Assembly (NCBI GenBank): GCA_965223295.1
Contig: CBDCWC010000002.1
Coordinates: 1,024,001 to 1,088,000, forward strand
Reading direction: 5' to 3'
Length of the DNA: 64,000 nucleotides
Source of the DNA: Nitrospirales bacterium
GTDB taxonomy: Bacteria > Nitrospirota > Nitrospiria > Nitrospirales > UBA8639
In this document: positions 34,011 to 56,530 of the stretch, piece after piece
Numbering within the stretch: position 1 is the stretch's first letter
How the letters are laid out: every line of letters starts with the position of its first letter
The notes under the pieces: generated by a model
What the model saw: only the letters and a program-made list of their open reading frames with translations
Databases searched by the model: none
Told to the model about the DNA's origin: nothing
Position numbers and translations under genes: made by a program

Positions 34011-35182
34011 TGTTTCATGTCCTGGTGCATTATCATGAATTAGCGCTCAAGGGCCGCAACCGCAAACACTTTGAATATCGGCTCGTTCAGCATCTGCGAC
34101 GCGCCTTAAAGCCAATTACGCATATCCACGTCGAAGCCCTTCAAGGCAGAATTCGCGTCAGCTTTGAAGATGAAGCCGCTTGGCCGCCTCTGAAGCACCA
34201 ACTTGAGCGAGTGTTTGGCATCGTCAATTTTTCGCTCACTCGATCAGTGCCCCTACCCTTTGACAATCCAGACATCAGAGCTTTGAAAACAGCTATCCAA
34301 TCTGATCTCCCAATCAACTCATACAACACTTTTCGTGTGAGCGCGAAACGCGCTGACAAGCGATTTCCCAAAACATCCATGGAAGTGGAGCAAGAAATTG
34401 GGGCCGCTGTTGTGGAACAGACCGGTAAAAAAGTACAACTCAAGAATCCGGATCTGACAATCCTCGTTGAGCTTGTTCCACCCGAAGCCTACTACTCCTG
34501 CCACCGAGATCAGGGCGCAGGCGGTCTCCCAACAGGAACAGGCGGAAAGGTCGTTTCCCTCATCTCAGGAGGGATCGATTCTCCTGTCGCCACCTACCGC
34601 ATGCTCAAGCGTGGCTGCAAAGCCGTATTCGTCCATTTTCATGGACGCCCCTATTTGTCTCGAGTCTCCGAAGAAAAAGTACAGGATATCGTCAAACTGT
34701 TAACCTCCTACCAATTACATTCCCGCCTCCATCTCGTGCCTTTTGGGGAAATCCAGAGCCAAATTGTCGTCAATTCACCTCCGTCTGTGCGTGTTGTTCT
34801 GTACCGTCGTCTCATGCTTCGCATTGCTGCTAAAATTGCTGAGCAAGAAGAAGCCTGGGGATTGGTCACAGGCGACAGTCTAGGACAAGTGGCTTCCCAA
34901 ACTCCTGAGAATATCGCAGTAATAAACCAAGCCACAACCATGCCGATTCTTCGCCCACTCATCGGTATGGATAAAATAGAAATCACTCAACAAGCTGAAG
35001 CTATCGGTTCATTTGAAACCAGCATCGAACCCGATCAAGACTGCTGCACACTCTTTGTCCCTAAACATCCCCGAACCCGCTGCGACCTACCTAGCATCCT
35101 CAAAGTTGAAGAAAACCTGGACATTCCTAACCTCATTCAGCAAGGCCTGCAAAGCAGAGAACTCCTCGAGTTTTCCCATTAG
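34010..35182 (+). CDS. thiI: tRNA 4-thiouridine(8) synthase
   Basis: ELALKGRNR, THUMP domain, LISGGIDSPVA, GDSLGQVASQT, DCC. Confidence 0.95.
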   Translation: MFHVLVHYHELALKGRNRKHFEYRLVQHLRRALKPITHIHVEALQGRIRVSFEDEAAWPPLKHQLERVFGIVNFSLTRSVPLPFDNPDIRALKTAIQSDLPINSYNTFRVSAKRADKRFPKTSMEVEQEIGAAVVEQTGKKVQLKNPDLTILVELVPPEAYYSCHRDQGAGGLPTGTGGKVVSLISGGIDSPVATYRMLKRGCKAVFVHFHGRPYLSRVSEEKVQDIVKLLTSYQLHSRLHLVPFGEIQSQIVVNSPPSVRVVLYRRLMLRIAAKIAEQEEAWGLVTGDSLGQVASQTPENIAVINQATTMPILRPLIGMDKIEITQQAEAIGSFETSIEPDQDCCTLFVPKHPRTRCDLPSILKVEENLDIPNLIQQGLQSRELLEFSH

Positions 35183-35464
35183 CAACTTGAGACTCATCTA
35201 AAATGCCACAGATACGAACTATTCAATGACTCTACTTTGCTCTAATACCCCTCCACCGTTAACTTTTTTCAGCATCAACAAGTCCTCTCTTAAACAGTTT
35301 TGGTTGGCAATAAGGAAGGTCTGAATGAACCCGTCTCCCCTCAGCATAAAAAATTGATTCCTTTGCTCATTTTGAGTTCGAAAAATTGGATATTGCTTAA
35401 AGCATATTTATCAACAGAGTACGAACAATTGATTTCTAAAGCGTTCTCCCATAGCTACTGACAA

Positions 35465-35492
35465 TTATGAGAAAACTCCCATTTTCTCATGA
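35465..35492. other. 28-bp 11-6-11 palindromic site, copy A (putative tyrosine-recombinase/dif-like site)
   Basis: TTATGAGAAAA-CTCCCA-TTTTCTCATGA; 27/28 identical to the copy at 36463. Confidence 0.6.
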
Positions 35493-35784
35493 CCGTTCGA
35501 CTATCCTGTTCCCTTGAATATATCATTAAAAGCATAATCGTTGAATAACATCAATTGGAACCGGCAAGTTTTTGCCAGGGATGGGAAAGTCTCGGGAACT
35601 TGATGCATGGTTAGTGAAGGAATCCTATGAAGAGTAGCGATGAGAAAGAAAAACGCTCAGGGAATACTCAACTACTCTTTCAGGGCTCAGGTAAGATTTC
35701 GTTTTTGGGGCTTCGAGTTTTATGAGGATGAGGGAATCTGTTCCATGGTCTCTACAGTAAATTAATGTAACAAAACACCCTTTT

Positions 35785-36093
35785 CTAGTGCTGCCGTGCC
35801 GATAAAAGTTCTTTGGCCGTCATGAAGTTTTTAGGCGGGGTAAAGCTATCTGTAACCCGTGCAAGGTCATACTGCTTTTGTAGGTTCAGCCAAAATTCCG
35901 CACTGTTCCCAAAGAACAAGGAAAGCCTTACGGCGGTATCAGGAGTGATAGACCTCTCACCGCTCACAATGGCATTTATGCGGGTTTTAGGAATGTCCGT
36001 TGCTTTCGCAAGGGCATACTGTGAAATTTCCATCTCATCAAGAAATTCCTCTTGCAAGATAATGCCGGGGTGTTCAACGGGTATCTTTCTCAT
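35785..36093 (-). CDS. higA: HigA family antitoxin
   Basis: HPGIILQEEFL, HTH, ITPDTAVRLSLFFGNSAEFWLNLQ. Confidence 0.93.
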   Translation of the reverse strand: MRKIPVEHPGIILQEEFLDEMEISQYALAKATDIPKTRINAIVSGERSITPDTAVRLSLFFGNSAEFWLNLQKQYDLARVTDSFTPPKNFMTAKELLSARQH

Positions 36094-36102
36094 TTTCTTC
36101 TC

Positions 36103-36393
36103 CTAGACCTTGTCGTGATAGTCGCCAAATTCAACATTCAATGCGTCGCCATTCTCCCAGATAAACCATATTCGGTATTGATCTGTTACCCGAATCGCAT
36201 GAAATTTACTCCACTTGCCTTTCATTTTTTTCAGCCTATTGCTGGGCGGGATCTTTAAATCAGTGATATTCCGGGCCGCGTCGATCATTCGTAATTTTGT
36301 GAAGGCTTTGTTTTGCAAGGCCTCAGGAAGCTTCTTAACATACCTTCTACTCCAAATCGATTCTGTTTTCTTGTCCCCAAATGTCTTAATCAC
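36103..36393 (-). CDS. higB: HigB (RelE-family) toxin
   Basis: MIKTFGDKKTE...DLKIPPSNRLKKM...IRVTDQYRIWF...DYH; lies upstream of higA. Confidence 0.92.
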   Translation of the reverse strand: MIKTFGDKKTESIWSRRYVKKLPEALQNKAFTKLRMIDAARNITDLKIPPSNRLKKMKGKWSKFHAIRVTDQYRIWFIWENGDALNVEFGDYHDKV

Positions 36394-36399
36394 ACCCAA

Positions 36400-36428
36400 A
36401 TAGTACCGTTAAACGGTACTAGTGTCAA
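36400..36428 (-). promoter_or_regulatory. Sigma70 promoter of higBA with embedded operator palindrome
   Basis: TTGACA(36428-36423)-17 nt-TACTAT(36405-36400); perfect inverted repeat TAGTACCGTT-A-AACGGTACTA at 36401-36421. Confidence 0.85.
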
Positions 36429-36462
36429 GACAAATAGGAACGTCTCACAAAACAGGAAGGCC

Positions 36463-36490
36463 TTATGAGAAAACTCCCCTTTTCTCATGA
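36463..36490. other. 28-bp 11-6-11 palindromic site, copy B
   Basis: TTATGAGAAAA-CTCCCC-TTTTCTCATGA, in direct orientation with copy A. Confidence 0.6.
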
Positions 36491-36527
36491 GTGAGTGGAA
36501 TCGCTATGGAATCTTTTCTACAACTCC

Positions 36528-39500
36528 CTATTGAGGCCAAGGCGGAGTTTCGGCGCGATAAGACAAAACAAAGAGAATGTCCGTAATCTCTTCCTGAGCA
36601 AACCGGCTACGAAGTTCCTGACTATCCGTCAAACTCAATTCCCACCGCCCAAAAGGCTGCCGTCCGACAAGCGAAAGCCAATTCACGCCATTCCCAAACC
36701 GTGTACTGACTTTACAGTCGATTGATTGTGCCGACCCACCATATGGAGGACCAGATACCTGTTCTTGAAAATGTAAGTGATCTATTGCGACGGGAAACGC
36801 TTCGATACCATCTTTTTTAACAAAGTACAAAACGACGTGCTCAATGCGCACGTTCATAAGGTTGGGTGGAAAATCCTGAGGGCGAGTGTCAAAGCCAACA
36901 ACCATGGGCGTGCTGGTCTGATCAGGATTATTAAGATCGTACCACGGATCAGGAAACTCATGGCGGAAACTAAAGGCGCGATCGGCCTGAACCGTTCGGT
37001 TCAAACGTTGAATGACCTGTTGGCGGTAATCAAAACTATTCAAAGCGGAGTATTCGATCGTGAACAGCACAGTCGCCATCGTGTTAAAATTAAATTGATT
37101 GGAGGCTTTGGGCAAGGTCAGTTTCCACAACCGATCCACTCCACTCCCCTCAAACGTATTGAGGAATTCCGGAGACTCCGGTTGAAGTGGGACGGTCCCA
37201 GATGTCGCAGAGGTAGACGTAAAAGCCATCTGTTCAGGTTCAGTACGAACTATAATGGGTTGGAACAAGCTACCAAATCGACTCACAACCAGTTTGGACG
37301 TACTAGAAGCATCAAGGGTAGCAAGAACCCCCAGAGTTGGAGAGACAACAGCCACGATGGAAAGACTCACCCGCTCAATTAACCGTAGATAGTGTCCAGG
37401 GAAGTCACGATCGAATAATTCCATCGGGGTTGTAAATTCCAGGACTCCAGATTCTCGAAACTCTTGAAACTCGAAAGGAAAAAGCAGAGCCAGATCAAGT
37501 GTCTTAGAAATTTGTAGTTTCCGTTGTTTCGTTTCAAAGACATACTGATCCAATTTATGCACATCCGTGAGCAATCGCACTGATCCTGTCAGGCCATCGG
37601 TCGGATTATTGCGTCCCGGTCGTCCTTGTCCATTTTGTCTAGGAGAAACCCAATAGGAATCTTGGATGATTCCGGGGTCTCCTGTTTGTCCTGCAAAAGC
37701 CGCCGCATTCTCGGCTAACTTCGCCATGGCTGTCCCTGCTTGAAGAAAATATCGATAAATATCTCTGAATACCACACTCATCCATCGATATACCTCCAAA
37801 TTCAACGTTTTATTCATAAGAAAATGCAGCACGTCCATAGCATGTTGGGATTCAATCTGAGAAATTGCATGTTCTTGATTCACGATTGCCAAATGATCTT
37901 GTGCTAATATGATTTGCTGATTACCAATTAAAATGTCTTGCTGAGCCAATTGTTCTTGGAGACGCCATTCCTGATCGCGACGTTCAAAACTGGCTAGGGC
38001 AGAATTGATCTGAGCTGACATTTGTGCAGATATCGCTTGAACATTGAATACACCTGCAGCTAAGTGTGAAGCTGTTGCTGCTGCTGCTGCTGCTGCCCGA
38101 ACCGCATATTCTCCCCATTCCCAAGGGAATACCTTCCTAACTCCTAGTGGCGGAGTAGCTGCAGGAATGGAGGCCGAAAATGCTGCTGCCGCGGCTGAAG
38201 CTTGCGCGGCACCTCGCTGAGCTTCTCCTGCATCTTTGTAGGCCTGAACCATATTGCGTTCATGTTGATTTTGTCCCTGAGAAATCCAACGATCAAATGT
38301 TGCTTGTCTTATAATAGAACTGGAATGCTGCACTGTCGCTAAATCAACTCCATGATTGGCCTCTTGGATACGCACACGTTGCAATTGTTCTCGTGAATTC
38401 GCCAATTGCATACCTTGCTCAGCCTGAATTCTTGATAGGTTTTCTGTATCAATAGCTTGTAGAGTAGCTATGTAGTGGCCTTCAAGTTGCTGGGCCAAGG
38501 ATACGAGTTCCTTCGCTCGTCGAACCAGCTCCGAATATCGGTAAATCGGTGGGGTAATATGATCTCTACCCTGAATCTGAATTCGACCTCTAGATGTCCC
38601 CGGCAATCCTTCATCCGGCGCAATGGAAACAGCATAGGGATCGACATCACGTCGTATTCCGGCAATATTCCGACAGGTTCGTAATTTCCTGAGGTTATTC
38701 TCAGCTCTCAATCGAAGCGCGCTCAGAACAGGATTCGGTGGAATACAAAAAGGAAAAGAAATGCTTTTGCTAGCAAAACGGGTGCTTGTGGAAGTCAATT
38801 GCCCCAATCGTAAATATGGGGAATGACTTTCTTCGATTAATGATCGAGTCGTGGTTCGTGAGGGATTCAGGAGTGTCAACACTCGAGATCGAGACAAATC
38901 TCCATTATCACCAAGGACAGCCAAGCGCGTATTCTCGATAGGCAATTTAAGCCAAGCGGTTGCTGTGTCATCCAACTCAGACTCGGGTTTTTCCGCAATG
39001 ACAGCCACAGCTCGTCGATACTGGTGAGTCCGTTGTCCGGTAACTTCCCCCAAGGATTTCGCCAAAGAGGGTTGGGCTAAAATCTGACGTTCAAAAACTC
39101 TGGCTTCCTTAGAGTGGGAAAAGGCTTTGGCCGTCAACGTTGGCGCTGTTTCATTCTTACCTAACCCTTCATGCAGCAAACTTTTCATCCGCCTGAATTG
39201 ACTTTGGGTATCAAGCGTTTCATCATTCCGAATCTCATTCATTGCTGATACTAGAGTATGAACCCTGTCGCTGTTGTCAACACTGGCTGCGGCCGTCTTT
39301 AACGTTTCAAAAAGTGGTTTCCATTCGGGAGCCACTTCGATGTTCAATGTGCCGATGGTTTGCTTGCAAATTCCAAGAGATTGATCCAGTTCTTTCGTAT
39401 CAAGAAGATCAAGGGCTTTCTGATAATAGCCCCGTGCTTGGGCATTTGTCTCAATTGTATCAATCGTGAAAAGGGAATCTGCCAAATCAAGGTAACATCG

Positions 39501-42500
39501 AATAATGGAAATCAGGCAATACCGAGTATACGCATTCCTTCTCGTAGAGGCGATAGCATGAGAATTAATTGGGTCGCCCTCCCAGCCATCTTGACGAACA
39601 AACTGTGTTTCAAGTTCTTCTTCTTGCTTTAACCAATAATCAATTTTTCTTTTGCCTAGGGGACGTCGATCATCATACACGAGACGAAACCATTTTAAGG
39701 CTTCTTCAAAATACCCTGCGGTGTGAAGTTCGGTACCACAAAACATCGGAACAGCATGAAATGCTTCATAGAGATAGGATACTGTCGATTGCGGAACTTC
39801 TAGATCAGCACCATACAATTCCCTGTAAGCACCGGCTATCTGATTCTTTCTTACTCTCTGTTGCTCTTGCCCATTTGGAACAAGATCAAAGGGACCAGAA
39901 CATGTGACCATTACTTTCCTTTTTTGTGAAGCCTGCAGGGTGTCTCCCGTCCTTCTAACTAACATCCGATAAAAACTTCTATCATCTTTGAAAATAAGCG
40001 TTTTTTCTATACCTTCTATTGTGTCTTCTTCTCCATTCGAAAAAAGTATCTCCCAATTTACCGGCAAATCGTTAGGCCCATTTACTTCACTCTTAATATC
40101 TCTTTGTTTAAAAGGAACAATATTTCTTGGAATTAATGGGTTTATGGATGGCTCAGCATTTACTATTTTGTGAATCGCCTGCAAAAAGGAAATTCCGTCT
40201 AAGGAAAAAAATTGGGTATAGATGTCAGCAATTTTCCATGGACCCTTCTTTCGATCTAGAAAAGAGGACTGAGAAATTTCGGCGAAGTCAGCCTCAAATG
40301 TATGATCAATCCAATACTTTTTTATTCGAGTATTAGCATCCCCCACAATTTCGAGCCCTTCGTCTAATTGGAAGGAATAATATTCCTCAATATCTTTATT
40401 ACTTAATTCCAAAAAATCATGAAGATTTCCATCAAAATCAAAGTTTGGGATTATCCCTTCATAACCTTCCACGACTTCATCTGCCCCTGCTAATCCGCCT
40501 CCATCCGGTTGAACGCCAAATGAAATGGAGCTAGGGAAAGAAAAGGTAACTTTATAGGCCTTAAGATCAATTCCAGCTCTCTGAAGAAGATTGCTACGAT
40601 AATCAATAAAAGCATTGCTATTGCCCGTTTCAATAAGCTTCCCCGTCTCCTGAATAATCACATACTGTAATTTGGTTCCATTCCACCAATAAACATAGAC
40701 ATCGACGCTCTTAGGCCAAACGAATGCACCACGAAACTCACCCTGTCCAATATCTCCAAGTTTAATCCACAAGCCATCATCCCTACTGTCTGGATGATTT
40801 GAAGGAAAATAGATCATTCGATAATGAAGACTTCCGTCATTCTTTCGAAGAATCAATACATACTCTATTGGCGTTCGTTGAATAAACGCACATACGCTAA
40901 CAAACGCTTTAGCTAATACATTTCCAAAAAGAGGGGTCCATTCACTATGCTTCCATTCCGTGGCTGATGCAGTTAGTTGCGGAAGAAAAATAGTGCCATC
41001 GGGGATCCTGATAGCCAAAACCGTTGGAGTGTCATTTGTTGGTAGGTTGGAGTTAGAGATTCCCAAAATCGGGAATATTCCATTTGATGATGATTTCCCT
41101 AGTCGTTTTTGAACAGTTATTGCGGTAAAATCTCGTTCTCCACCTGGCGGCAAATCCAACCCTCGTGCCAACCCCCAAGCCAGGGAATCCAAGCTTAAGG
41201 AAATTACTTGCAAACTAATCTCGTCCAAGTTTCTACTTTTTACAAAAAGGAGGAGAACTCGTTCCTCTAAATGCGTAATATGTGGGACGGCCCCTAATAT
41301 GGCTATGACACCTTCAAGATCAGGAACCGGCCGCCAAGAGTCTTGAGTATCCTGGTTTTCATTGTAGGCATTGACACTTGAGTAATAGACTTTATAACTG
41401 TTAGAGGAAAGACCAAACATATAGATTCGTTCTTCGATTGGGCCTGACGTTTGACAGGGCTCGCCTATTGGAATCGGCACTTTCACTTGACAAGTCACCT
41501 GAAGATCCAAATTACAAATGTCTTGGAAATAAGCACTATAAAACCTGGCTGCTTGACAGGCTTCCTCTGGCGTTGGTTGAGACGATAATTGCTTTACCAT
41601 TTCTTTAAACCCATGAGACTGTTGCTCTCGAAGGGTTGATGAAAGGTACAAAGAGGGATACAAGAAGACGAACATTGCAGACTTCCAATTGGCGTAGGAT
41701 TGGAACCATTTCCACGCTTCCTCAAAATCATCTGCATTCTCCATGGAGAGGTCGGGAAAGGTCAGGTTCAATTCATGCGACCAGATGCCCCACATCAATA
41801 ATTGTATAGTTTCGATGGCTTGACTTACACGAGTCGTTTTCATGCAACCATCCATGTTCATGTCGATCAAAAATCGTTTCGTTAGAACATCGGCTTTGGA
41901 TTCATGGGAATCATGTTCAAATGGTACTTTGCGAATCAGGGCATCCCGCAACTGCGGGAGCATAACTTCTTCCACTTCACTTGCGGATTGTCGTAAGGCT
42001 TCGGGGATGCTATTCAATTGATCAATGCGCGCCTGCAAGGTATATTGCCATTCTTGATGTGCGACTTCATCAATGAGCCACTGCGCAATCCGGCTGTCTT
42101 CTGAACGTTCCCCGTGATATAGGCTGAACAAAGCAGGACGCAGTGTGACACCTTTTTCACGTTCTTCCTGCTTCCACACTTGCGTCAGTCTACGCTTTTC
42201 AATGTTAAGGAGCACGGCTACCGTCTCACGCCATTCACTCAGTGACAAGTCTACTTCTGCAATGACAGACTCATAAAATTGAGTTAAATACGAGAAGTCT
42301 GAATAGTCCATCGTGAGCTGAGACAATCTCGGTGTCATATCAACACCTGAACGGGACTCAGTGATGAGCCCTTCTAAGAACCCCAATCCTCCACCTAGGA
42401 CGCTCTCCAACAATACCGCATCCAAGGCTTCTCGTGTAGTCGGATGATTGAGAGAAGCCGACTGCAGGTCATTCGTTCGACTTGCTGCCCAGGCTTTGCG

Positions 42501-45416: not shown

Positions 45417-45554
45417 GTTATCTCCCCAGCAGTGTTAATAGCCTAATTAGGAATCGATAAAAATAAATTGTTGGTTGATTAAAACGTGAAAGTTTCTAGT
45501 GATGTGTCTTCGATTAGCATGATATCCCTCCTGGATAAAGACGAGATTTTTGAC

Positions 45555-46036
45555 TCAGTAAATACGTTTTGATATGGAGGAAAAATTCATAAAGTTTCTT
45601 AGAAATCCATTTTCCCTAATTTCATTGAAGACTTCAAAATGAGACTTTAAACGTGTTCGAAGTTTAAACGCTCCATTCTCAGCGGTGATTTGGATGTTGG
45701 CGCTCAATTCGTCAGTACCACGGGTTGGCTCAAGATGATAAATAATTTGACAACTCCCCGCTTCCACCCACCTTCTTCATTCCCTTGTGCAGGAGTAGTA
45801 GCTCCTGAGACTCTACCGGTTTCGAAAGTTCGATTTAGTACACGAATTGCGGCATCCTTTGGAGCTGGGCTTCCTTAGGATAAAGTTACGACACTGAAGA
45901 CCTTCTGCGTTGGCGTTGGCGTTGGCCTTACCGTGAACGGCAAGGGGATTGCGCCTAGTGTCCGGCCTACCGCCAGGATTTTATTGGCAGTCGTCTCATC
46001 GCTTGTTTGTTATGAATCGGAATAGTCTGTGGGCAT
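45555..46036 (-). pseudogene. Decayed duplicate of the 5' end of the TcA-like gene
   Basis: PAPKDAAIRVLN..GNEEG/fs/VEAGSCQIIYHLEPTRGTDELSANIQITAENGAFKLR..KSHF versus TcA PAPKDTVIRVLN..VEAGSYRILYALEATPGSDDPSANIQVVAENAELKLR..KIHF. Two stops and one frameshift. Confidence 0.85.
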
Positions 46037-46059
46037 GGCATTCACCAACAAATTAGAAA

Positions 46060-46175
46060 GTGAATCTCCGCCAGCTTACGCTGACGGTTTCATCACTGGT
46101 CAAGCTTCGCTTGGCCTTCGTCTTCATTGAAGACGAAGGCAGCGCTTCATCCACCAGCTCACGCGGGTGGTCTTA
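46060..46175 (+). mobile_element. Miniature IS200/IS605-type (PATE-like) element
   Basis: GTGAATCT + hairpin CCGCCAGC-TTAC-GCTGACGG; internal 13-1-13 palindrome at 46114-46140; TTCAT + hairpin CCACCAGC-TCAC-GCGGGTGG. No ORF. Confidence 0.6.
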
Positions 46176-46213
46176 ATGCGCAGATAAATACTTTAATTCA
46201 TCATTTCAAACGG

Positions 46214-49200
46214 TTAATGGATGTAATGTCCTTCAAGCAATTCATGGAAACGTTTATTAAATGAATTTTTTCTATAAAGAAACAAATATTCAAGATCTTC
46301 ATCTATTTCATTAAAAAATTTACTTCCTAGGAGCAACATATTTGCCTCTGTTTCTTCGATGATGTTTTTTAATGTAGGTGAGAAGTTATTATATTGACCA
46401 TTTAAAATAAAACGATAAAGAATATTCATGCTTGCTTCTGTTGTTTTTATTTCTCTTATGCTTTTTATTTCCTTAGGGTAGGAATGGGCTGGACTATGTT
46501 CGGCAATATATCCTCTGTTATAAAGTAAGCTCATTACTGCGACAGAGCTTAAAAGAGAAAGTCCTGTTTCAGCATCAGCTTGAGCGATAGAATTTGGAGA
46601 TGTAATGTCTTTCATACGTTTTTCTATAGATCCGCCAGACGATAAATTGATTGTTCGGTGCCAAAAAAACTCGATGGCAAGCGTACGCCCTTCATTGCTT
46701 TCTTTATAAACTTGCTCCAGCCCATCTTGGTGAGTGTGAGCAAACTCATGGAGAATTATTCCCGCAATAAATGAGATTCTCTCTTGTTCATCATCTATAT
46801 TTCCATGCGTCTCAATGTATTTGTACATTTCACCAAAATAAAATTTAGTTTTTCCACTTTTGGTAACACCAAACGATGGTGTTTTTGGATCGACTGATTT
46901 CAAGTCAATGGAAGAATTTCGGCCTTCATCATAATAAGATGATATTACCGATTTGAACCTTTTCCCAAATCGTTCCCCTATCAGATTTAAAGCTTTATCA
47001 AAATCATGGAGTGCTTGCTCTTCACTTGCTTCAAAATTCAAGTTTTTATTATCGGAATTAAGATTATTAGCTTTTGTTTGATCAACTTCCATACCATTTT
47101 TATCACTAAATAAAATTGGACTACTTAAAACATAACTATACAAATTCAGACCATTGACCGTTCCCGCTGGGTCCGCATTCAGCCAACACCCGAGCCAGGG
47201 AGCATAGTAGCGAGCAACGTGATAATTGAGCCCACTCTCTTCATCGCGTTCTTTTCCAGTAAATCGGTAGCGTTTTCTAGAAAAACTCCCAAAGCTGGTT
47301 TCTCCGTATGGGGTATATTCTTCACGATTAATCAACGTCCCACTTTGGTCAATGGCCACATGACTACTTCCGAGGTGGTCGCCTAAATGAAATTTCAAAT
47401 CAGGAGTTGGATCATCCAAAAATGACTGACCAATACGGAAGGTGGCGATCCGTTGCTGATCGTCCATAATATGCAATGTGTTGTTGACGACTGTCTCACT
47501 CTGAAAATGTTCGAACAGATCATCGATATAGGTCGTGGATTCAAACTCTCCGTTTTGCCTTCGAACGAGTTTTTTGACTCGGTTCCCATCCGCTCCATAC
47601 AAATACTGGGCATGCAATGAGGGCTCTGACTCTCCGGCCTGCACAAAGAACGCTTTCATTTGATTGCTATGGTTGTACGCGAAATTTCTCGTTCCATTTT
47701 CTCGAACCATATTTCCGGCTGAATCGTATTGATAGGGAAACAAATCTTCTCCGATGGTTAAATTTTGGAGACGATTGTTCCCTGTTTGGACATTGAAGGT
47801 TCTCGTAAAGGATCCGGAACTAGCGATGTGCCGAAGTTCCAAAATATTCCCGTTATCATCGTGGGTATAATGTTGTGCATAGGCTCGCGTCAGTGTTGCA
47901 TCTTGTGTTTTGGGTTGATCAATCCAAGGGAATGCTGGTGGAGATTGACCTTGTTCTCGCCCACCATTGGCTTCGACTAATCGATTGAGTGGATCGTACG
48001 AAAAGAGGCGATCGAGTGCGTGTAATCCGAGAAGGGAATTGGAAATCCCACACTCAGGTGTCCGTTCTCGAATACCAAGAATATTGCCATTGAGGTCGTA
48101 CAAATAGGAAAAGTCTTGAAGTGGCGCACCCGTGGGTTCATACGTTGGAATATTGAAGTCTGGTTTTGTATACCGATCACTTCGAAGTCGACTGAGTTGA
48201 AAGGTCTCATGCTCGTAGGCATAGCGAGTCATAATGCCATTGCCATAGGCTACGAGGGTGCGTTGACCTTTAGAATTGTAGGCGATGTGGTCTACGAACA
48301 CTTGGCCATTCATCAATACTTGTTCTAAGGCTCCTGTATGGTTAAAGCGTGGTTCCAGGATTTTTCTTTCTCCCTCCACATCCTCCGGGTAAACCACACG
48401 CCTGCCACGATTTAGAGCATCATAGGAAATGGAGGTTCGATATTCTGTAAGATCAAGAATCTGTTCGGCTTCTAATCCTAGTGATGACGGCCAATTTACA
48501 TGAAAAGCTTCTACCTGGGAGTTCGGAAGCACATTGTCAAACACGGCAAGCATGGCCTCGTTACTGATGACTTGTCTAACTTTTCCTAGAGGATTTCCTT
48601 TGAAATCATACTGTGGAATTTGAACTCGACCGGCCTCGTCATACTGTTCAAGCAATTGCCCCAAGGCATTTCGATTACGGGCATGTTCACGTGCAAGCTC
48701 TGATGGGTCCGAATCTCCGTACCCCAACACTTGCCTCAATGCCATGTCTTGCCGATTATGATCTCTAGCCCAAATGCGATGAGCCCGAGACAATTCGTCA
48801 TAGGCATTCAGCACCAAGGCCTGTTTACTGTCGCGTTGTTCGACAGGATTTCCTAACGCATCAATGATCGTCCGTGTTATTCCTGCATCGATGCTTTCTG
48901 TTCTCAGAGGATTGTTAGCTAAATCATAGTTATAGCGGAAGGCTGAGCGGTTCAGGGGATCGATAATTTCCAGAGCATTGCCCTGAATATCAAACCGGGA
49001 TCGGGTAATGACCTCCCCACTGCCTTCCGGCTCTGAGCTTTTTCTCACCGTGGCTTTGACCGTTCGACCGAGGGCATCGATTTCGATACTGGACGGGGTA
49101 TTCCAATGATCTGCATATCCTTGTGAGGTTTCGGGATGCGTACGACCCGCATTGTCATTGGGATCATAGGCATAGGCTTCCCAGGGCGTGGGGGTAAACT

Positions 49201-50797
49201 CGTCCGGGTTATTCAATTCCACTGGAATGCCAAAGATCATGCGTTCTTCTGACCCATTGGGGTTGACGGTTCGAATCACTTGTCCGCGTGGATCGTAGTA
49301 CATGGTCACGTGTTGCCCCACCAGGGTATCGCCTTCTTCCCCAGCCTCTACAGGTGATTGAAACGCATAGCCATTGCTAAAGAACGGTTCATATTTTTCG
49401 ACCACCCACCCTTTGTTGTTATAGATTTGCCACCCACTAACGACCACACGTGGTTCGTCAGATGTTACGATTTGGCTATTCGCTACTCCTCCGGGTAGCG
49501 ATTGATCCAACGGCAAATTGGCGTTGTTCCCAAATATTGGATCCCCGTAAAAGCGGTCTTCGGCTTGCGTTCGCGTTTGAAGCAGGCGGCCAAACCCGTC
49601 AGAATATTCAACTGTCTTGATCGTCGAATCACGTTCGTCTTCGGGAATGTTGGCATCATTGATATGCCAAATCCGAGCCAGGCTGGTGACTGAAACCGGT
49701 TGACGATCCGTCATGAATGCCAGGAAATTATAGGTCAACTCCACACCGGGAAAGTCTTCCGTATCCCCTTCTCCTTCCCGTCCAATGGTCATAGTTTTTG
49801 ATACGAGGCCTAACGGAGTGAATCTGACGGCTGTTTGATTGCCATTTGGCTCCATGAGGGTATGGGGTTGAAAGACCTGGTAATCATTGGTGGCTTCCAC
49901 CCGTAACCCGGTTGGTCCCGTGATACCAAGAGGTAGTAGGTTGAAACGGTCATATTCAATGTGTGTTTCCTGTCCTAAGGGATCCCGGACAGCAGTTGGA
50001 AGCCCTCTGGGGGTCTCCCCCTCAAGATGAAAGTCGAACTGGTTTTGTGCGGTGGTTACCCAATAGCCTCGAGTGTGTTCATCCGTCCCGTCATGAAAGG
50101 TATACCCGGCAAGCGACGGTATGCTTTCTTGGAATTCTTGTGGATACTCATCCGTCCACTCAGGAGGTCCTGTGGGATTTAAATACGGTGGGATTTCTGG
50201 AGAACTTTCTTCCTCGGGAGCACTCCTATAGGCTTCTTGTAAGATTTCTTCGGTCAACACAAGATTTTCTGTTCTGACTACGACCCCAAAATCTCCTACC
50301 TGGCCTAGTGGCAGCCCCATGAATGCTTCGCCATCATAGTAATTAATGGTATGAGCCAGTAGGCGGAGAGATGCCGTACCGCTCAGCACGTCGGTGAGCA
50401 ATGCTGGATGTATTCTGTCTGCTTGGTGAAAGAGTGCCAGGCTTCCGTCATTTAGAATTTCATGCGTGGTTGCTTGACTTACTCGGCCAATCAGATAGTG
50501 AGTCGGATCGTCTCGATTAATAAACGTCGCTCTTGAAATCGTGCCCAAATAGGGCTCACCCGATGGGGCTACTTCAAGGAACTGTCTTTCCCTGGGTATT
50601 GCAAGGGCCACTTGCACTTGGGCCTGCCCAAACTCATCGAAGGCGCCCGACAGCGAGAAATTCGTCATGGGATCCGCCCCTCGTTCCCATTGGGTGGTAC
50701 GCTGAGCTAATTGATGCGGAAAAAAGATATGAGGATGTGAGGAATCAGATTCACTGGAAGGAGCTTCTTCCCGTAAGCCGTAGATGGTCTCCGTCAC
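46214..50797 (-). CDS. C-terminal part of the TcB-TcC fusion: RHS/YD repeats, RHS core and HExxH toxin tip
   Basis: YSDGFGRLLQTR, YDALNR, DHLGSS, EEYTPYGE, RYRFTGKERDEESGLNYHVARYYAPWLG, PILFSDKNG cleavage motif, then ILHEFAHTHQ. Confidence 0.9.
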   Translation of the reverse strand: MTETIYGLREEAPSSESDSSHPHIFFPHQLAQRTTQWERGADPMTNFSLSGAFDEFGQAQVQVALAIPRERQFLEVAPSGEPYLGTISRATFINRDDPTHYLIGRVSQATTHEILNDGSLALFHQADRIHPALLTDVLSGTASLRLLAHTINYYDGEAFMGLPLGQVGDFGVVVRTENLVLTEEILQEAYRSAPEEESSPEIPPYLNPTGPPEWTDEYPQEFQESIPSLAGYTFHDGTDEHTRGYWVTTAQNQFDFHLEGETPRGLPTAVRDPLGQETHIEYDRFNLLPLGITGPTGLRVEATNDYQVFQPHTLMEPNGNQTAVRFTPLGLVSKTMTIGREGEGDTEDFPGVELTYNFLAFMTDRQPVSVTSLARIWHINDANIPEDERDSTIKTVEYSDGFGRLLQTRTQAEDRFYGDPIFGNNANLPLDQSLPGGVANSQIVTSDEPRVVVSGWQIYNNKGWVVEKYEPFFSNGYAFQSPVEAGEEGDTLVGQHVTMYYDPRGQVIRTVNPNGSEERMIFGIPVELNNPDEFTPTPWEAYAYDPNDNAGRTHPETSQGYADHWNTPSSIEIDALGRTVKATVRKSSEPEGSGEVITRSRFDIQGNALEIIDPLNRSAFRYNYDLANNPLRTESIDAGITRTIIDALGNPVEQRDSKQALVLNAYDELSRAHRIWARDHNRQDMALRQVLGYGDSDPSELAREHARNRNALGQLLEQYDEAGRVQIPQYDFKGNPLGKVRQVISNEAMLAVFDNVLPNSQVEAFHVNWPSSLGLEAEQILDLTEYRTSISYDALNRGRRVVYPEDVEGERKILEPRFNHTGALEQVLMNGQVFVDHIAYNSKGQRTLVAYGNGIMTRYAYEHETFQLSRLRSDRYTKPDFNIPTYEPTGAPLQDFSYLYDLNGNILGIRERTPECGISNSLLGLHALDRLFSYDPLNRLVEANGGREQGQSPPAFPWIDQPKTQDATLTRAYAQHYTHDDNGNILELRHIASSGSFTRTFNVQTGNNRLQNLTIGEDLFPYQYDSAGNMVRENGTRNFAYNHSNQMKAFFVQAGESEPSLHAQYLYGADGNRVKKLVRRQNGEFESTTYIDDLFEHFQSETVVNNTLHIMDDQQRIATFRIGQSFLDDPTPDLKFHLGDHLGSSHVAIDQSGTLINREEYTPYGETSFGSFSRKRYRFTGKERDEESGLNYHVARYYAPWLGCWLNADPAGTVNGLNLYSYVLSSPILFSDKNGMEVDQTKANNLNSDNKNLNFEASEEQALHDFDKALNLIGERFGKRFKSVISSYYDEGRNSSIDLKSVDPKTPSFGVTKSGKTKFYFGEMYKYIETHGNIDDEQERISFIAGIILHEFAHTHQDGLEQVYKESNEGRTLAIEFFWHRTINLSSGGSIEKRMKDITSPNSIAQADAETGLSLLSSVAVMSLLYNRGYIAEHSPAHSYPKEIKSIREIKTTEASMNILYRFILNGQYNNFSPTLKNIIEETEANMLLLGSKFFNEIDEDLEYLFLYRKNSFNKRFHELLEGHYIH

Positions 50798-53439
50798 CGT
50801 ATAGGGGCGATTTTCTCTTCCCCCCCATCCAGGGCATAGAGTTCTGTTCTCAACACCGAACCGCGCAGAGTTCGCATCGCATCTCGCTTAACCCGACGGT
50901 CTGCAATTCCTGCAAGAAAGGACGGAATGTGGTGGGATTGCAGGTGTGCTTCGACTGACGAACTCAGACTTTCTTCTACGTCCGTGACTTGGTCCCACAC
51001 GCCAGGATCGCCATCCCAATATTCATGGCGGCAATCAATTTCATCCCAATCACCAAACTCGGGTCCAACAGGCCCAAGATGATGCCAAATCTTTGTGAGC
51101 GTAGGGGGCGAGAAATGTTCACGTTCTATAGGTTCAAAATGTCGATTCTCGTCATGAAGTCCAGGACTATGGTAGATATCAAAAGTTTCGGTATCGCATT
51201 GTTCGACGAAGCCAAACCCACGAAACTCACGCTCGCCTCCATCCCAGTAACCGTGATGGTATTTGTATTCCGTGGTAAGTTTGCCTCCAGACAGTTCGTC
51301 GATGACTTCCACGCAGGACACGACTTGAACCGGAAAGGGTAACGTGGTCTTCCAGCGCGTTTCGGGTTGGGCTTGATCGCGAAGATATTCTTCAATGGAC
51401 GACCGATATTTCACCTGGGTTAACGCTCCCATGTGATTGTTCATCTGGTTAAGAACATAGGGTTTGACGCCGCCCGTAAAATCCAGAAAGAAATGATGGT
51501 CTCTGGGCGTGTCAAAGACTTCTCGACTCCATAACACTCCACTCACGCCCGTCCCAAGGAGATCTTCTAAACGCAAAGAATCGCTGTTTGATATAGGCGG
51601 TGTTCCATCAATCTCGATGGGCGCACTCCAGCCATTGCCACTTTGGTTTATCCACAGCGTGACTTTACAGTGGTCAACAAACACCAAGTCTGCCAACCCA
51701 TCTCCATCTACATCTCCAATTAGTATCTGCTGTGGAGTATATCCCGCAGGAAAACGGGGACTGTTTCGCATATGAATCCGTTTGCCCCAATTTCCGTAGC
51801 CCAGGTTTGGCCAATATTCGATATTGCCATCATGGACGAGGACGATGTCTTGTAGACCATCGCCAGAAAGATCTGCCCATTTCACGCGAGGATCAGAAAA
51901 ATTCACATCTGGAAATTCCCGGAGATCATGCTGGCGTGTGACTCGCCGAGTTTCACTCCACCCTTCTTGAGGGTCGTTGAAATAACATTCAAGCCGATTC
52001 CCAGACCGAATCGCATCCATCACTCCGTCGCCTGTTAAATCGGCCAATGCAACACTGGGATCCTGGAGGCCAACACTAGGACTATGGCTGTAGCGTCGAA
52101 ACGACTGTCGACTCCACCCACCCTCACGTTGTAATGGATAATAGCCGGATAGGCCTCGCGTGGTGACGATTAAATCCGGCTGGCCGTTACCATCTGCATC
52201 TCCCAGTTGCACTCCCGGTGTTCCTAGCTGCAACCCGGCAGGGGCTTCTTTCATCAGACGAGGTAGATCGAATTTCCCATTGCCCAGATTTCGCCAATAC
52301 CGAACGGCTCCGTTCATTTCCAAAAAATCTGGAAGGCCGTTTCCAAATAGGTCTACGAGTTCTAGCTGTGGACTGGCCAGCGATGAGACGGGCAGGTCTG
52401 CTCCTTCGAGTGGAAAGAAATCCCTTCCGGCGGGTGAAAACTGCGTGTAGGAAAACTCGAGCGGGGGCAGATGTTGCGTCTCTCCTTCTCGATGCCCTTC
52501 GATGAGAAATTGGCTTAAGACTGAAGTTCCGTTAAGGGGAAGTTCATGCTCAAGTCCCTCCCGTTCATCTAAGTATCTGAACTGGTAGGTTCGCACATGA
52601 TGGGTTTCATTCGGGTGTGTGTGGACTTCGATGTGGGTGCAACGTTTTGTCGTACGGATCTCAAAACCTGGCCTATATTCCGAAAATGGATCGGGACGGT
52701 CTTCATAGTGAAAAGAGACCGAAACGAGAAACTGCGTCTCTTCTGAGCCGTCAGTCTGGAAATCTATGTATTGAATGCGGTCGACGTAGAGCTGATCCCA
52801 GTTGTGCGGGCCGTCTTCCCGGACTTCCTCACGTCGGTATGAGTAGCGTATGACATTCCCAAATGGGTCTCGAGTTTCGGTCAGTTTCCATGCAAAGATG
52901 TGGTGCCGATTCTGAGGGTCGGCGATGATGGCAGGATCAACTCCCACCGCTTGAGGGGTTCCATACAGACTCACTAAGCCATCTTTACTCTGCACTTCCC
53001 AGAAATTATTCTGTGCATCTTCATGATGAAGAATACGAGCGAAGAGGCCTTCGGTGCGAGGTCGGTATCGAACAACGCCAGGAGCAAACTCGCCTACCGG
53101 TACCAGGTCCTCAGCACCGGACAGAATGAACGTATCGCGCATTGAGAGTTCAGGATCATGATCTCTATACCGTGGAATGCCCTTTGAGGTTTTTCTGGCA
53201 ACCCCAGGAATGCTTAAATTCCACCCGAGCCCAAACGGTCCATTTCCATTTCCTGTGCTATACCCCAAACTGAGTTGAGGCTGGAAACCGTTCCTACCCG
53301 ACGGCACTTCAATGGGAATGGTAAAGTTTCCGGTTCCGGTGAAGAGATCCGGAGAAAAGGTTTCTCCAATGCCTTTGAGAGCGCCGCCTCCCTTAGGAAG
53401 TGAAATATTTGTCGTGGAAGATGAGTTGGAATCGGCCAT
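50794..53439 (-). CDS. N-terminal part of the TcB-TcC fusion: SpvB domain, FG-GAP propeller, TcdB mid-N
   Basis: ISLPKGGGALKGIGE, PQLSLGYSTGNGNGPFGLGW, RPDPFS.YRPGFEIRT, DxxGDGxxD repeats, YWDGGEREFRGFG. Ends by frameshift at ELYALDG. Confidence 0.9.
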   Translation of the reverse strand: MADSNSSSTTNISLPKGGGALKGIGETFSPDLFTGTGNFTIPIEVPSGRNGFQPQLSLGYSTGNGNGPFGLGWNLSIPGVARKTSKGIPRYRDHDPELSMRDTFILSGAEDLVPVGEFAPGVVRYRPRTEGLFARILHHEDAQNNFWEVQSKDGLVSLYGTPQAVGVDPAIIADPQNRHHIFAWKLTETRDPFGNVIRYSYRREEVREDGPHNWDQLYVDRIQYIDFQTDGSEETQFLVSVSFHYEDRPDPFSEYRPGFEIRTTKRCTHIEVHTHPNETHHVRTYQFRYLDEREGLEHELPLNGTSVLSQFLIEGHREGETQHLPPLEFSYTQFSPAGRDFFPLEGADLPVSSLASPQLELVDLFGNGLPDFLEMNGAVRYWRNLGNGKFDLPRLMKEAPAGLQLGTPGVQLGDADGNGQPDLIVTTRGLSGYYPLQREGGWSRQSFRRYSHSPSVGLQDPSVALADLTGDGVMDAIRSGNRLECYFNDPQEGWSETRRVTRQHDLREFPDVNFSDPRVKWADLSGDGLQDIVLVHDGNIEYWPNLGYGNWGKRIHMRNSPRFPAGYTPQQILIGDVDGDGLADLVFVDHCKVTLWINQSGNGWSAPIEIDGTPPISNSDSLRLEDLLGTGVSGVLWSREVFDTPRDHHFFLDFTGGVKPYVLNQMNNHMGALTQVKYRSSIEEYLRDQAQPETRWKTTLPFPVQVVSCVEVIDELSGGKLTTEYKYHHGYWDGGEREFRGFGFVEQCDTETFDIYHSPGLHDENRHFEPIEREHFSPPTLTKIWHHLGPVGPEFGDWDEIDCRHEYWDGDPGVWDQVTDVEESLSSSVEAHLQSHHIPSFLAGIADRRVKRDAMRTLRGSVLRTELYALDGGEEKIAPIR

Positions 53440-53580
53440 CCCTAGCCCCTTGCCAAATTTTCAGTAGGAATTTGATTAACTTTGATTAGTCTCTAACTTA
53501 ATAATGAATATAGGGAACATGGTGTTATTTTAGTCATAATCGTCGTGTTACACGGGTGCAAACTCATGAAACCCTATCCA

Positions 53581-53704
53581 GTGACACTCCCCGCCCAAAG
53601 GGCGGGGCTTCTTCAAAACCTATTAAGAACTATCGCTTTCGTTTGCCCAAGGCTGCCATTCATCCCCATGCAAAGCAAGGGGCTTTCCTGGCAGGATTAG
53701 TAAA
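53581..53704 (+). mobile_element. Miniature IS200/IS605-type (PATE-like) element
   Basis: Left hairpin CCCCGCCC-AAA-GGGCGGGG (53589-53607); right CATTCAT + CCCCATGC-AAA-GCAAGGGG (53664-53682). No transposase. Confidence 0.7.
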
Positions 53705-53706
53705 TG

Positions 53707-53734
53707 TCATGAGTATTTGGCTCTTTTCTCATCA
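53707..53734. other. Degenerate third 11-6-11 site
   Basis: TCATGAGTATT-TGGCTC-TTTTCTCATCA; right arm 10/11 and left arm 8/11 to the palindromic consensus. Confidence 0.35.
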
Positions 53735-53836
53735 CAGCCTGCATCCTCAATGTATGGTCTCTTTGATCCGCCCCATTGCCCCACATTAAGATAAAAAAGT
53801 CAACCGGCTTCTGCTCAAAAGGGAGAGAGGCGTGGC

Positions 53837-54148
53837 ATGAGTACTTCGGTAGTGCCTAACCCTGTCAGTCCCCGTGCGGAACATGTGACAATCACTGAAG
53901 ATACGTTAAGCGTCGATCTTGGAGACGGACGAACTATTGCCGCTCCGTTGGCCTGGTTTCCACGGCTTGTTCATGCAACTTCCGAAGAGAAAAACAATTG
54001 GCAGCTGATAGGCCAAGGCAAAGGCATTCATCGGGAAGATCTTGATGAAGACATTAGCATTGAGGGGTTACTTGAAGGTCGACCATCTGGAGAAAGTCAG
54101 ACCTCATTCAAAAAATGGTTAGACGCACGCTCTGCTCATGACAAATAG
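53837..54148 (+). CDS. DUF2442 domain protein (putative TA antitoxin)
   Basis: LSVDLGDGRTIAAPLAWFPRL..AT.EE..NW.LIG.G.GIH..LDEDISIEGLL. Confidence 0.88.
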   Translation: MSTSVVPNPVSPRAEHVTITEDTLSVDLGDGRTIAAPLAWFPRLVHATSEEKNNWQLIGQGKGIHREDLDEDISIEGLLEGRPSGESQTSFKKWLDARSAHDK

Positions 54149-54591
54149 TATTCGTAGTTGTTTACATACGAAAGATGCACTAACTCCTTATCAGCTCTAA
54201 GCTTTACCTTTCCTCTCTTGACTCGTTCAAGCCATAACCCACTTTTTTGAATTCCTTCCGGTGCCCATCCATAAGATTCTCCATTCCAAGGAGACTCTTG
54301 CGTTAAGGTTGTGCCCAATCAACCAGCATCCATATAGAAGTACGAAAAATTTCGGCAGAGATTGATTTTGCACTTTGTTGCTCAAAAAGGTTACCAACAA
54401 TATATCCAAGAAGCATGTGATGATGGTATAGTAAGGACCATCGTAGAATGGCACCCACACCTGGTAGAAAGTGATCATTGACACAATATCTGTTTTGTAG
54501 ATTTTGTCATAATTTGTGTAGTCGCAACCTGCCCTTGAGTTATTTGAACTATTCGTCTATAAGTAACTGAAACTATTAAAATATCTTGCGC

Positions 54592-54681
54592 GGAGAGGTG
54601 GCCGAGTGGCCGAAGGCATCGGTTTGCTAAACCGACGTAGGGTCACACCTACCATGAGTTCGAATCTCATCCTCTCCGCCA
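54592..54681 (+). tRNA. tRNA-Ser(GCT)
   Basis: GGAGAGG/CCTCTCC acceptor stem plus G-CCA; anticodon arm TCGGT-TTGCTAA-ACCGA; long variable arm; GTTCGAATC T-loop. Confidence 0.96.
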
Positions 54682-56474: not shown

Positions 56475-56530
56475 AAATACCCTCGCTCTTTCAGACGTAG
56501 AGTTCTTGCTCCCCTTAAATACATTCCTCC

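Follow-up and report, generated by a model that had tools for sequence, protein, structure and literature searches.

We analyzed a 64,000-nucleotide stretch of the genome of a Nitrospirales bacterium (the window), in which an island lying between thiI and a tRNA-Ser(GCT) gene carries a higBA toxin-antitoxin (TA) pair, a Tc-toxin locus, and three short sites designated s1, s2, and s3. Comparisons with related genomes and contigs showed that sites of this kind bound mobile cassettes and that insertion occurs by conservative recombination, with the crossover in the spacer of the site. On the basis of these sequence comparisons, we consider it probable, at roughly two chances in three, that the sites are the core of a small, self-contained recombination system whose most likely enzyme is a 194-amino-acid (194-aa) tyrosine recombinase, that higBA is an inserted cassette, and that the array in the window is now frozen.

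The genome holding the window (G000) comprises 3.78 Mb in three contigs, and the window corresponds to C2:1024001-1088000; coordinates given without a contig prefix are those of the window. The genus sample consisted of 50 genomes and the phylum sample of 401 genomes. Sites were additionally sought in 185,579 species genomes and a metagenome collection.

Class-1 sites bound mobile toxin-antitoxin cassettes

The first two sites and the segment between them consist of the following features.

35465 to 35492, + strand: s1, class-1 recombination site with core at 35467-35490 and spacer CTCCCA; attL-like junction of the higBA cassette.
35493 to 35784, no strand: noncoding part of the higBA cassette, which holds a conserved element.
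35785 to 36093, - strand: higA antitoxin gene, helix-turn-helix (HTH) type (Pfam HTH_3, PF01381, 1.5e-9).
36103 to 36399, - strand: higB toxin gene, RelE-like (Pfam HigB-like_toxin, PF05015, 2.3e-18).
36402 to 36420, no strand: 19-bp perfect palindrome AGTACCGTTAAACGGTACT, directly upstream of higB and separate from the 28-bp sites.
36463 to 36490, + strand: s2, class-1 recombination site with core at 36465-36488 and spacer CTCCCC; attR-like junction of the higBA cassette and left limit of the Tc segment.

An earlier reading, made from the sequence alone (the sequence-only reading), had described s1 and s2 as 28-bp sites on the same strand that agree at 27 positions. Both are present in direct orientation with that degree of identity, and they exceed what shuffling produces, since none of 100 shuffles of the window contained two or more site matches. 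Comparison of all copies defined the class-1 core as the 24-bp sequence ATGAGAAAA-CTCCC(A/C)-TTTTCTCAT, outside which one or two more bases are semiconserved on each side. The arms are symmetric, and the sites are near-perfect palindromes of 24 to 28 bp. The hairpins that they could form are weak (-6.2 and -6.5 kcal/mol) and are not followed by a run of T residues, so that a reading of the sites as terminators was rejected. The earlier reading had named higBA as the only genes between s1 and s2, and higA and higB are the only ones with Pfam support that were found there. Judged by domain content, they qualify as a type II TA pair, with a predicted HigB/RelE-fold toxin gene followed by a predicted HTH antitoxin gene, and AGTACCGTTAAACGGTACT is a likely candidate for the HigA operator. 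The 283 bp between thiI and s1 had no match elsewhere in the sequences compared.

Class-1 sites were present in 4 of the 50 genus genomes (G000, G002, G063, and G064). In the wider scan, only Nitrospirales/Nitrospirota records were recovered, barring two or three likely chance matches. Nine pattern matches came from metagenomes; those in L080 and L077/L081 fall within long coding frames and are probably due to chance, and L078 is the same contig as L071.

Three lines of comparison bear on mobility. The higBA cassette recurs, together with both of its class-1 sites, in G063, where it is 93% identical over 1005 bp and stands between unrelated flanks. We also identified a pair of empty and occupied alleles. 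The empty allele, on metagenome contig L082, has one site, ATGAGAAAACTCCCCAATTCTCAT; the occupied allele, in G002 (locus L069), has 1010 bp with a DUF433/DUF5615 pair between ATGAGAAAACTCCCCTTTTCTCAT and ATGAGAAAACCCCCCAATTCTCAT. Their flanks correspond closely (98 of 100 positions identical plus one indel on the left and 64 of 64 identical on the right). At the left junction in G002, the left half is that of the resident site and the right arm is foreign; at the right junction, one spacer base is foreign and the right arm is the resident one. Because both junctions are hybrids of resident and incoming halves, the crossover took place inside the spacer. Hybrid junctions of this type are the signature of conservative site-specific recombination and not of target-site duplication or of a transposon with hairpin ends. 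Finally, strain-level breakpoints were taken from Logan contigs of public runs, which reveal alternative joints and cannot show circles, excision frequencies, or absences. Contigs from related strains departed from the window sequence exactly at core edges, at 35467 and 35490 for s1 and at 36479 and 36488 for s2. One 7.4-kb contig consisted of the left flank of the window, one site, and then DNA resembling the right flank of the L082 locus, and another contig from a related strain joined the higBA cassette to the G063 flank. The G063 cassette, the pair of alleles, and the core-edge breakpoints together bear out the proposal that the sites delimit modules and that site-specific recombination moves these modules. 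TA pairs of four types adjoin the sites (higBA, DUF433/DUF5615, parDE, and RelE/MqsA-like).

Two further observations concern individual copies. Contig L082 is interrupted, 64 bp to the right of its site, by an insertion sequence with inverted ends (~190-1850). G000 has a solo, slightly degenerate class-1 site, TCATGGGAATACTCCCCTTTTCTCATAT (C3:106254-106281; L003 1498-1525), located past the end of a gene for a TPR protein in a spacer read as lying between convergent genes; this is possibly an unoccupied attachment site.

A small tyrosine recombinase gene adjoins the sites

The gene found beside class-1 sites encodes a small recombinase. On contig L076, an intact 194-codon copy has its stop codon 17 nt before a perfect class-1 site. 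For recombinase remnants, the distance from stop codon to site is 14 nt at the L069/L082 site and 16 nt in G395, where the site is degenerate; in L092 and G045, too, the recombinase gene has site remnants after it. Genes or remnants were found in 6 of the 50 genus genomes, which include all 4 with class-1 sites, and in the phylum sample the recombinase was found in 2 of 401 genomes, both of which have sites. This co-occurrence among related genomes is suggestive and does not amount to a statistical test.

The small recombinase scored 59 and 70 bits against PF00589 (cutoff, 27.1), and residues R44, K75, H140, R143, H170, and Y179 are invariant. By sequence, it fits the tyrosine recombinase superfamily, in that the predicted R-K-H-R-H/W pentad is present together with the nucleophilic tyrosine. 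Its alignment with the host XerC/XerD proteins is confined to their catalytic domain, from about residue 130, and the open frame of the small recombinase has at most 223 codons; by frame length and by this alignment, the protein has no N-terminal core-binding domain. In PMC8138268, all classified tyrosine recombinases are described as having core-binding plus catalytic domains or arm-binding, core-binding, and catalytic domains. An AF2 model of the small recombinase (mean pLDDT, 79) gave fold matches to XerA, Tn1549 Int, and Cre, and the only structure found by sequence was an archaeal Xer-like one. NCBIfam matches at an E value of <= 1e-5 included no model that would name the protein; neither the integron-integrase models TIGR02249 and NF011946 nor the XerS model NF003462 was among them. 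The models for FimB/FimE-type invertases (NF007370 and NF007371), which both match the host Xer proteins, were likewise absent from these matches. The family is large, with 5633 database proteins at an E value of <= 1e-5. Most of the 120 homologs listed from these are 191 to 197 aa long and are named just "integrase" or "site-specific integrase." Members occur on 336 plasmid records (Acinetobacter, 153; Piscirickettsia, 149; Legionella, 25; others, 9).

G063 is the only genus genome with an intact copy. The two copies in G000, one of them frameshifted and truncated (C3:114883-115258) and the other a fragment with stop codons (C2:10953-11222), are both defective.

A recurring platform, and its partial deletion in the window

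The right part of the island holds the third site and the features listed here; thiI, to the left of the island, is listed with them.

34010 to 35182, + strand: thiI (Pfam ThiI, 3.2e-69), the last syntenic gene on the left.
53707 to 53734, + strand: s3, class-2 site with core at 53709-53732, ATGAGTATT-TGGCTC-TTTTCTCAT, located between the Tc operon and the recombinase-platform remnant.
53837 to 54148, + strand: DUF2442 gene (Pfam DUF2442, 4.1e-18), which is what survives here of the DUF4160/DUF2442 pair found ahead of the recombinase gene in G063 and G395.
54362 to 54398, no strand: 37-bp deletion scar, where G063 has 1.9 kb comprising the 194-aa recombinase gene, a downstream site remnant, and a MazE-like cassette.
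54592 to 54681, + strand: tRNA-Ser(GCT) (ARAGORN), which anchors the island on the right; from ~54520-54586 onward, the window is again syntenic with relatives.

The sequence-only reading had taken s3 as a degenerate third copy of s1 and s2. The site is real but belongs to a distinct class with the spacer TGGCTC. Of its 22 arm positions, 5 are mismatched to s1 and s2 when s3 is read on the + strand and 4 when it is read on the minus strand; its spacer differs at 5 of 6 positions. As a class-1 copy, s3 is at background level, given that G000 has 33 strand-hits with five or fewer arm mismatches; that reading had held that a score at background would count against it, and what was found instead is membership in the second class. 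The class-2 pattern is ATGAG-N4-TGGCTC-TTTTCTCAT, of which s3 is an exact member. The pattern, as a 24-mer, had 24 matches in 15 of the 50 genus genomes compared to 2 for a reversed control, and the 15-mer TGGCTCTTTTCTCAT of s3 occurs exactly three times in the 3.78-Mb genome. Moreover, s3 is orthologous to the class-2 site of G063.

Nine recombinase loci were scanned, and in six of them the recombinase gene is preceded, at a distance of ~1.1 kb, by a class-2 site. The interval holds a TA-like pair, which is DUF4160/DUF2442 in G063 and G395, of the Gp49/HI1420 type in G045, and RelE/MqsA-like on C3 of G000. The recurring platform consists of a class-2 site, a small TA-like pair, the recombinase gene, and a class-1 site. 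The window is collinear with the G063 platform from 53705 to 54681, upstream of the same tRNA-Ser(GCT). Identity to G063 is 80% for the class-2 site plus ~100 bp, 80% for DUF2442 and the sequence downstream of it, and 83% for the tRNA gene and the 190 bp before it. Window positions 53827-54361 match positions 841-1375 of the G063 locus (L090), and positions 54399-54681 match positions 3285-3564; the DUF4160 gene of the G063 platform is not present in the window. This collinearity explains why the window appears to lack an integrase, since the stretch bearing the recombinase has been deleted. A profile search of the genome found six PF00589 genes, all outside the window, so that the earlier description of the island as integrase-less holds, although only for this decayed copy; relatives carry a recombinase gene linked to the sites. 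The island in the window is a fossil, a frozen relic. In the interval from the higBA cassette to the class-2 site, G000 has the Tc operon, whereas G063 carries different cargo there, namely 13 kb that encode an IS3 transposase and large proteins of unknown function. G000 also has a second decayed platform (C3:113347-115258; L084 11348-13259), which contains two class-2 sites, a RelE/MqsA-like pair, and the frameshifted, truncated recombinase gene.

We considered whether another enzyme uses the sites (the 399-aa or 408-aa tyrosine recombinase of G000 or an unsampled integrase) and the small recombinase gene is a neighbor or passenger, which we regard as unlikely. The two larger PF00589 proteins (encoded at C3:1684467 and C2:860611) have no assigned role, and the small recombinase is mostly decayed, yet cassettes vary between close strains. 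However, neither larger integrase is near any site, and the fixed spacings (14 to 17 nt from stop codon to class-1 site and ~1.1 kb from class-2 site to gene) recur in several genomes. Fixed spacing is what a recombinase with sites of its own shows, as xerS/difSL does (PMC5357621). The small recombinase is probably the acting enzyme.

Class-2 sites also lie upstream of Tc or Tc-like operons in G045, G016:C1, and G059, as in G000, at distances of 235 to 550 bp in the four genomes. This arrangement, along with their occurrence upstream of TA-recombinase operons, places them in divergent promoter regions, and s2 is only 64 bp upstream of higB. The palindromes, and s3 especially, could in principle be operators (for example, of an antitoxin-like platform regulator), with the module boundaries arising by homologous recombination between repeats. 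We consider this quite unlikely. The TA pairs beside the sites come from unrelated families, so no common regulator is expected; higB has a separate 19-bp palindrome of its own; solo sites lie between convergent genes; and the hybrid halves occur inside a site of only 24 bp, a length insufficient for ordinary homologous recombination. Class-2 sites could still act as operators in the divergent promoter region.

A conserved element, CCTGTTCCCTTGAAT, is found at some sites of class 1 and several of class 2, where it lies ~12 nt past the right arm. In the window, it occupies 35505-35519 and is followed by ~45 nt ending in CGGTGAATAAC (35505-35565 in all). It also follows sites at six other loci (G000 C3:1359715, L067 5684, L090 2100, L097 2723, L091 2961, and G016:C1 ~38555). 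The element may serve the recombination site as an accessory arm, or it may be a signal that marks the cassette end. No Rfam family matched it at threshold, and a scan of 35000-37000 gave only a subthreshold snoRNA match.

Host Xer proteins and Y1 transposases

The sequence-only reading had proposed that a host Xer-type recombinase is exploited, possibly of the XerH or XerS type. The host machinery is canonical. G000 encodes a XerD-like protein (TIGR02225, 337 bits) and a XerC-like protein (TIGR02224, 333 bits, slightly below the cutoff), and its dif site, ATGTCGCATAA-TAAATA-TTATGTCAAAT (C2:~633719-633746), is located 2 kb from the cumulative GC-skew maximum (C2:631889) and ~425 kb from the sites. 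GC skew is below zero over the whole window, which lies ~390 to 450 kb from the maximum; the suspicion that the window is not the replication terminus was correct. No protein of the XerS/XerH type was found in G000, where the XerS model reached just 119 to 121 bits compared to a cutoff of 267.

It remains the case that the 11-6-11 geometry is common to dif and to class-1 sites and that it agrees with the 11-bp arms and 6- to 8-bp central region given for XerCD/dif in PMC5357621. The inner GAAAA...TTTTC sequence was also rightly likened to difH and difSL, whose arms as quoted there are AGTTATGAAAA / AAAAGTTTGA and TTTCCGAAAA / TTTTCTTGAAA, respectively. Moreover, the modules have no recombinase of their own, and TA cargo is also carried by pdif modules. 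Recombination of dif-like sites by host XerC/XerD or by a single XerH/XerS-type enzyme, as in Acinetobacter pdif modules or IMEX elements, is nonetheless very improbable here. The arms of the host dif (ATGTCGCATAA/TTATGTCAAAT) are unrelated to those of the class-1 sites (TTATGAGAAAA-CTCCCC-TTTTCTCATGA), so that by arm sequence the sites are not of the XerCD/dif type, and the symmetry of the class-1 arms fits a homomer rather than a C/D heterodimer. The host pair includes no XerS or XerH, and the sites track another recombinase gene by adjacency and co-occurrence. Class-1 sites are furthermore confined to 4 of the 50 genus genomes, a count of sites alone.

We also considered whether the sites might be hairpin ends on which a Y1 (HUH) transposase acts in single-stranded DNA, either in modules derived from IS200/IS605 or in REP/RAYT-type modules with passenger genes. 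IS608-type elements have direct-repeat palindromes as ends, Y1_Tnp genes are present in G000 (5 matches), G063, G002, and G064, and G000 is full of a 195-bp repeat. This reading is nonetheless scarcely credible: a complete site remains in the empty allele, resident and incoming halves are reciprocally combined at the junctions (conservative recombination, not peel-and-paste), the hairpins are weak, no Y1 gene adjoins any site, and G045 has sites and a Tc module but no Y1 match. IS200/IS605 and REP/RAYT elements insert beside a short target that has no resident hairpin and do not give reciprocal hybrid junctions; the full site in the empty allele and the hybrid junctions place the present modules outside both groups.

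Copies of the ~195-bp repeat lie in the window at 56282-56477, 30004-30195, 32119-32296, and 63938-64058. The repeat had 273 blastn matches in G000, 199 of them at least 100 bp long, with dozens of copies in other genus genomes, and it looks like a MITE- or REP-like element.

The Tc segment

The segment between s2 and s3 carries the Tc genes.

36528 to 45416, - strand: TcA-like toxin subunit, 2962 aa (Pfam TcA_TcB_BD, 1.9e-43; ABC_toxin_N, 6.5e-17).
46214 to 50797, - strand: TcC-like RHS-repeat protein, 1527 aa (Pfam RHS_repeat, 1.6e-10).
50794 to 53439, - strand: TcB-like subunit, 881 aa (Pfam SpvB, 6e-51; TcdB_toxin_midN, 1.6e-34).

As predicted from these domains, the TcA, TcB, and TcC components of a Tc (ABC) toxin complex are all represented. 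In G045, where TcB shows 65% identity, the Tc locus is framed by a class-1-like site that lies ~170 bp past TcA and by a class-2 site located 235 bp ahead of TcB; the full order is class-1-like site, TcA, TcBC, class-2 site, TA pair, recombinase pseudogene, and site remnant. The earlier observation that sites bracket the Tc locus is therefore repeated in G045, where the brackets are likewise one class-1 and one class-2 site, but the spacers of the two sites differ and the bracketed segment is not a simple cassette. A larger unit, consisting of the Tc operon, class-2 site, TA pair, and recombinase gene between two direct class-1 sites, would form an excisable island.

Boundaries of the island

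On the left, homology with 10 relatives stops at 35121-35188, within 300 bp of s1, and the strain-level break is exactly at s1. On the right, the edge is not at s3, which had been taken as the far boundary; the island continues to ~54520-54586, beside the tRNA-Ser gene. The expectation that synteny breakpoints would coincide with the sites was accordingly correct for s1 at the strain level and not for the right edge. An empty allele spanning thiI to tRNA-Ser, which the sequence-only reading had suggested seeking, does not exist, as the two genes are far apart or on different contigs in G016, G012, G004, G014, and G006. The gene that follows thiI in relatives is a homolog of G000 C2:926026, and tRNA-Ser is preceded in G016, G012, and G004 by a homolog of C2:1001326-1005622. 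No site was found upstream of tRNA-Ser in the "empty" loci of G016, G004, G012, G014, and G006.

Two observations concern the surroundings of the island. In L088 (G004), a C-terminal fragment of a different tyrosine recombinase lies just upstream of tRNA-Ser, and integrating elements in general appear to use the 5' side of this gene as a hot spot. In G000, ~73 kb (C2:~1005700-1078500), with housekeeping genes such as the trxB-like gene and thiI, separate blocks that are adjacent in G016 and G004, an interruption that indicates large rearrangements in the G000 lineage.

Proposed mechanism and its weak points

We hypothesize that arms ATGAGAAAA and TTTTCTCAT would be bound by a homomeric recombinase and that the asymmetric 6-bp spacer, of which there are two classes, CTCCCC (class 1) and TGGCTC (class 2), would set the direction and the site of strand exchange. 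A circular cassette with one site would integrate at a resident site of the same class and so come to lie between two direct sites. In this way, the higBA cassette would have entered the class-1 site at the TcA end of a Tc island upstream of tRNA-Ser(GCT). An integrative Tc element could leave as a ~20-kb circle together with its own enzyme. G000 has lost the recombinase gene and its neighbors from the island by deletion, its other copies are pseudogenes, and the array is thereby frozen.

Several points weigh against this scheme. The enzyme is assigned by adjacency and co-occurrence among related, nonindependent genomes, and a protein without a core-binding domain would have to read arms of 9 to 11 bp. 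Most recombinase copies are pseudogenes. The site that follows the intact gene in G063 is rearranged, with AGGCTCTTTTCTCAT fused to the gene end, and G000 has no intact copy, so that nothing can move there now. Class-2 sites lie in divergent promoter regions and could be operators. Because class-1 and class-2 spacers differ, the Tc segment alone is not a simple excisable cassette. Lastly, no attB is defined for the whole island, because the "empty" tRNA-Ser loci of G016 and G004 have no site.

Relation to known recombination systems

Acinetobacter pdif modules resemble the present modules in being discrete, in often carrying TA pairs, in having 28-bp sites of 11-6-11 geometry, and in having no recombinase gene inside. 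In contrast, the sites described here are unlike the host dif, have symmetric arms, are in direct orientation, and are chromosomal, and a dedicated recombinase is linked to them in relatives. Sites of pdif modules alternate between C/D and D/C orientations. The dissimilarity to dif and the chromosomal context exclude the present sites from that group, which is defined by XerC/D-type sites on a plasmid.

Integrons share a platform linked to a recombinase, cassettes separated by sites, common TA cassettes, and two kinds of site; in G045 and the window, as in integrons, a site lies between the recombinase operon and the first cargo. Integron attC sites are long, imperfect palindromes of 57 to 141 bp that are recombined as folded single strands. 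The sites described here are near-perfect palindromes of 24 to 28 bp with weak hairpins (~-6 kcal/mol), and the 194-aa recombinase has no core-binding domain. Cargo orientation relative to the site is variable (higBA against it and the DUF433 pair with it), and one cargo is a 17-kb operon. With no IntI-type match (TIGR02249 or NF011946) at an E value of <= 1e-5 for the small recombinase and sites that are not attC-like, the system is not an integron.

Cre/loxP has symmetric arms, an asymmetric spacer that gives direction, and a single protein, and Cre was among the best fold matches of the modeled small recombinase; Cre differs in having an N-terminal DNA-binding domain. FimB and FimE are of similar size (~200 aa), but they invert DNA between inverted sites, whereas direct sites flank insertions here, and invertase models were not among the NCBIfam matches at an E value of <= 1e-5. 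Tyrosine-integrase islands beside tRNA genes and IMEX elements (the gonococcal genetic island) offer the parallels of a toxin island by tRNA-Ser, short repeats, and decay after integrase loss; the present island differs in lying 5' of the tRNA gene, in having its sites outside the tRNA, and in its modular interior, where cassettes have inserted secondarily at the island's own site. XerS/difSL and XerH/difH, as portrayed in PMC5357621, share a recombinase gene immediately beside the site, GAAAA directly before the spacer and TTTTC directly after it, and near-symmetric arms served by one protein. According to the same text, XerS and XerH are 354 to 362 aa long and act at one terminus site in an FtsK-dependent manner. 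The present system differs in having a 194-aa protein and multiple sites that are far from the terminus and flank mobile cargo. It falls outside the XerH/XerS modules, as there is no ~355-aa recombinase with a core-binding domain beside a site and no single site at the terminus.

We found no published description of such a system in the literature, at the level of titles and abstracts, or in family libraries. Our broader proposal is tentative, and we hold it at somewhat less than even odds: this may be an undescribed gene-capture system parallel to integrons and pdif modules, with catalytic-domain-only recombinases, short double-stranded palindromic sites, and at least two spacer classes. Its 2.3-kb platform would collect TA cassettes and, as an integrative element, 17- to 19-kb Tc operons, and its family (>5,000 proteins of ~191 to 197 aa) may act likewise on Piscirickettsia, Acinetobacter, and Legionella plasmids. 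If this is true, a ~194-aa protein acting on a 24-bp site would constitute a minimal site-specific recombination system, and a tyrosine recombinase could recognize and recombine DNA without a core-binding domain. There would be a third kind of cassette platform besides integrons and Xer-dependent dif modules, the shuffling of TA pairs and of a Tc-type toxin locus among Nitrospirales genomes would be explained, and a large unnamed protein family, present also on plasmids of animal and human pathogens, would have a function.

Homologs on plasmids

The Acinetobacter plasmid homolog that we compared is 33% identical, and its context is uninformative. On Piscirickettsia plasmids, TA pairs adjoin the integrase genes, and after these genes come either palindromes or tandem 28-bp repeats, which are candidate sites at most. 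On the Piscirickettsia salmonis plasmid NZ_CP038935.1 (L106 9541-9744), five to six tandem 28-bp repeats, each partly palindromic, start from the stop codon of a homologous small integrase gene, and hicAB TA pairs are located directly upstream of other copies of the integrase gene. The same logic of a gene adjoining its site may apply in Piscirickettsia.

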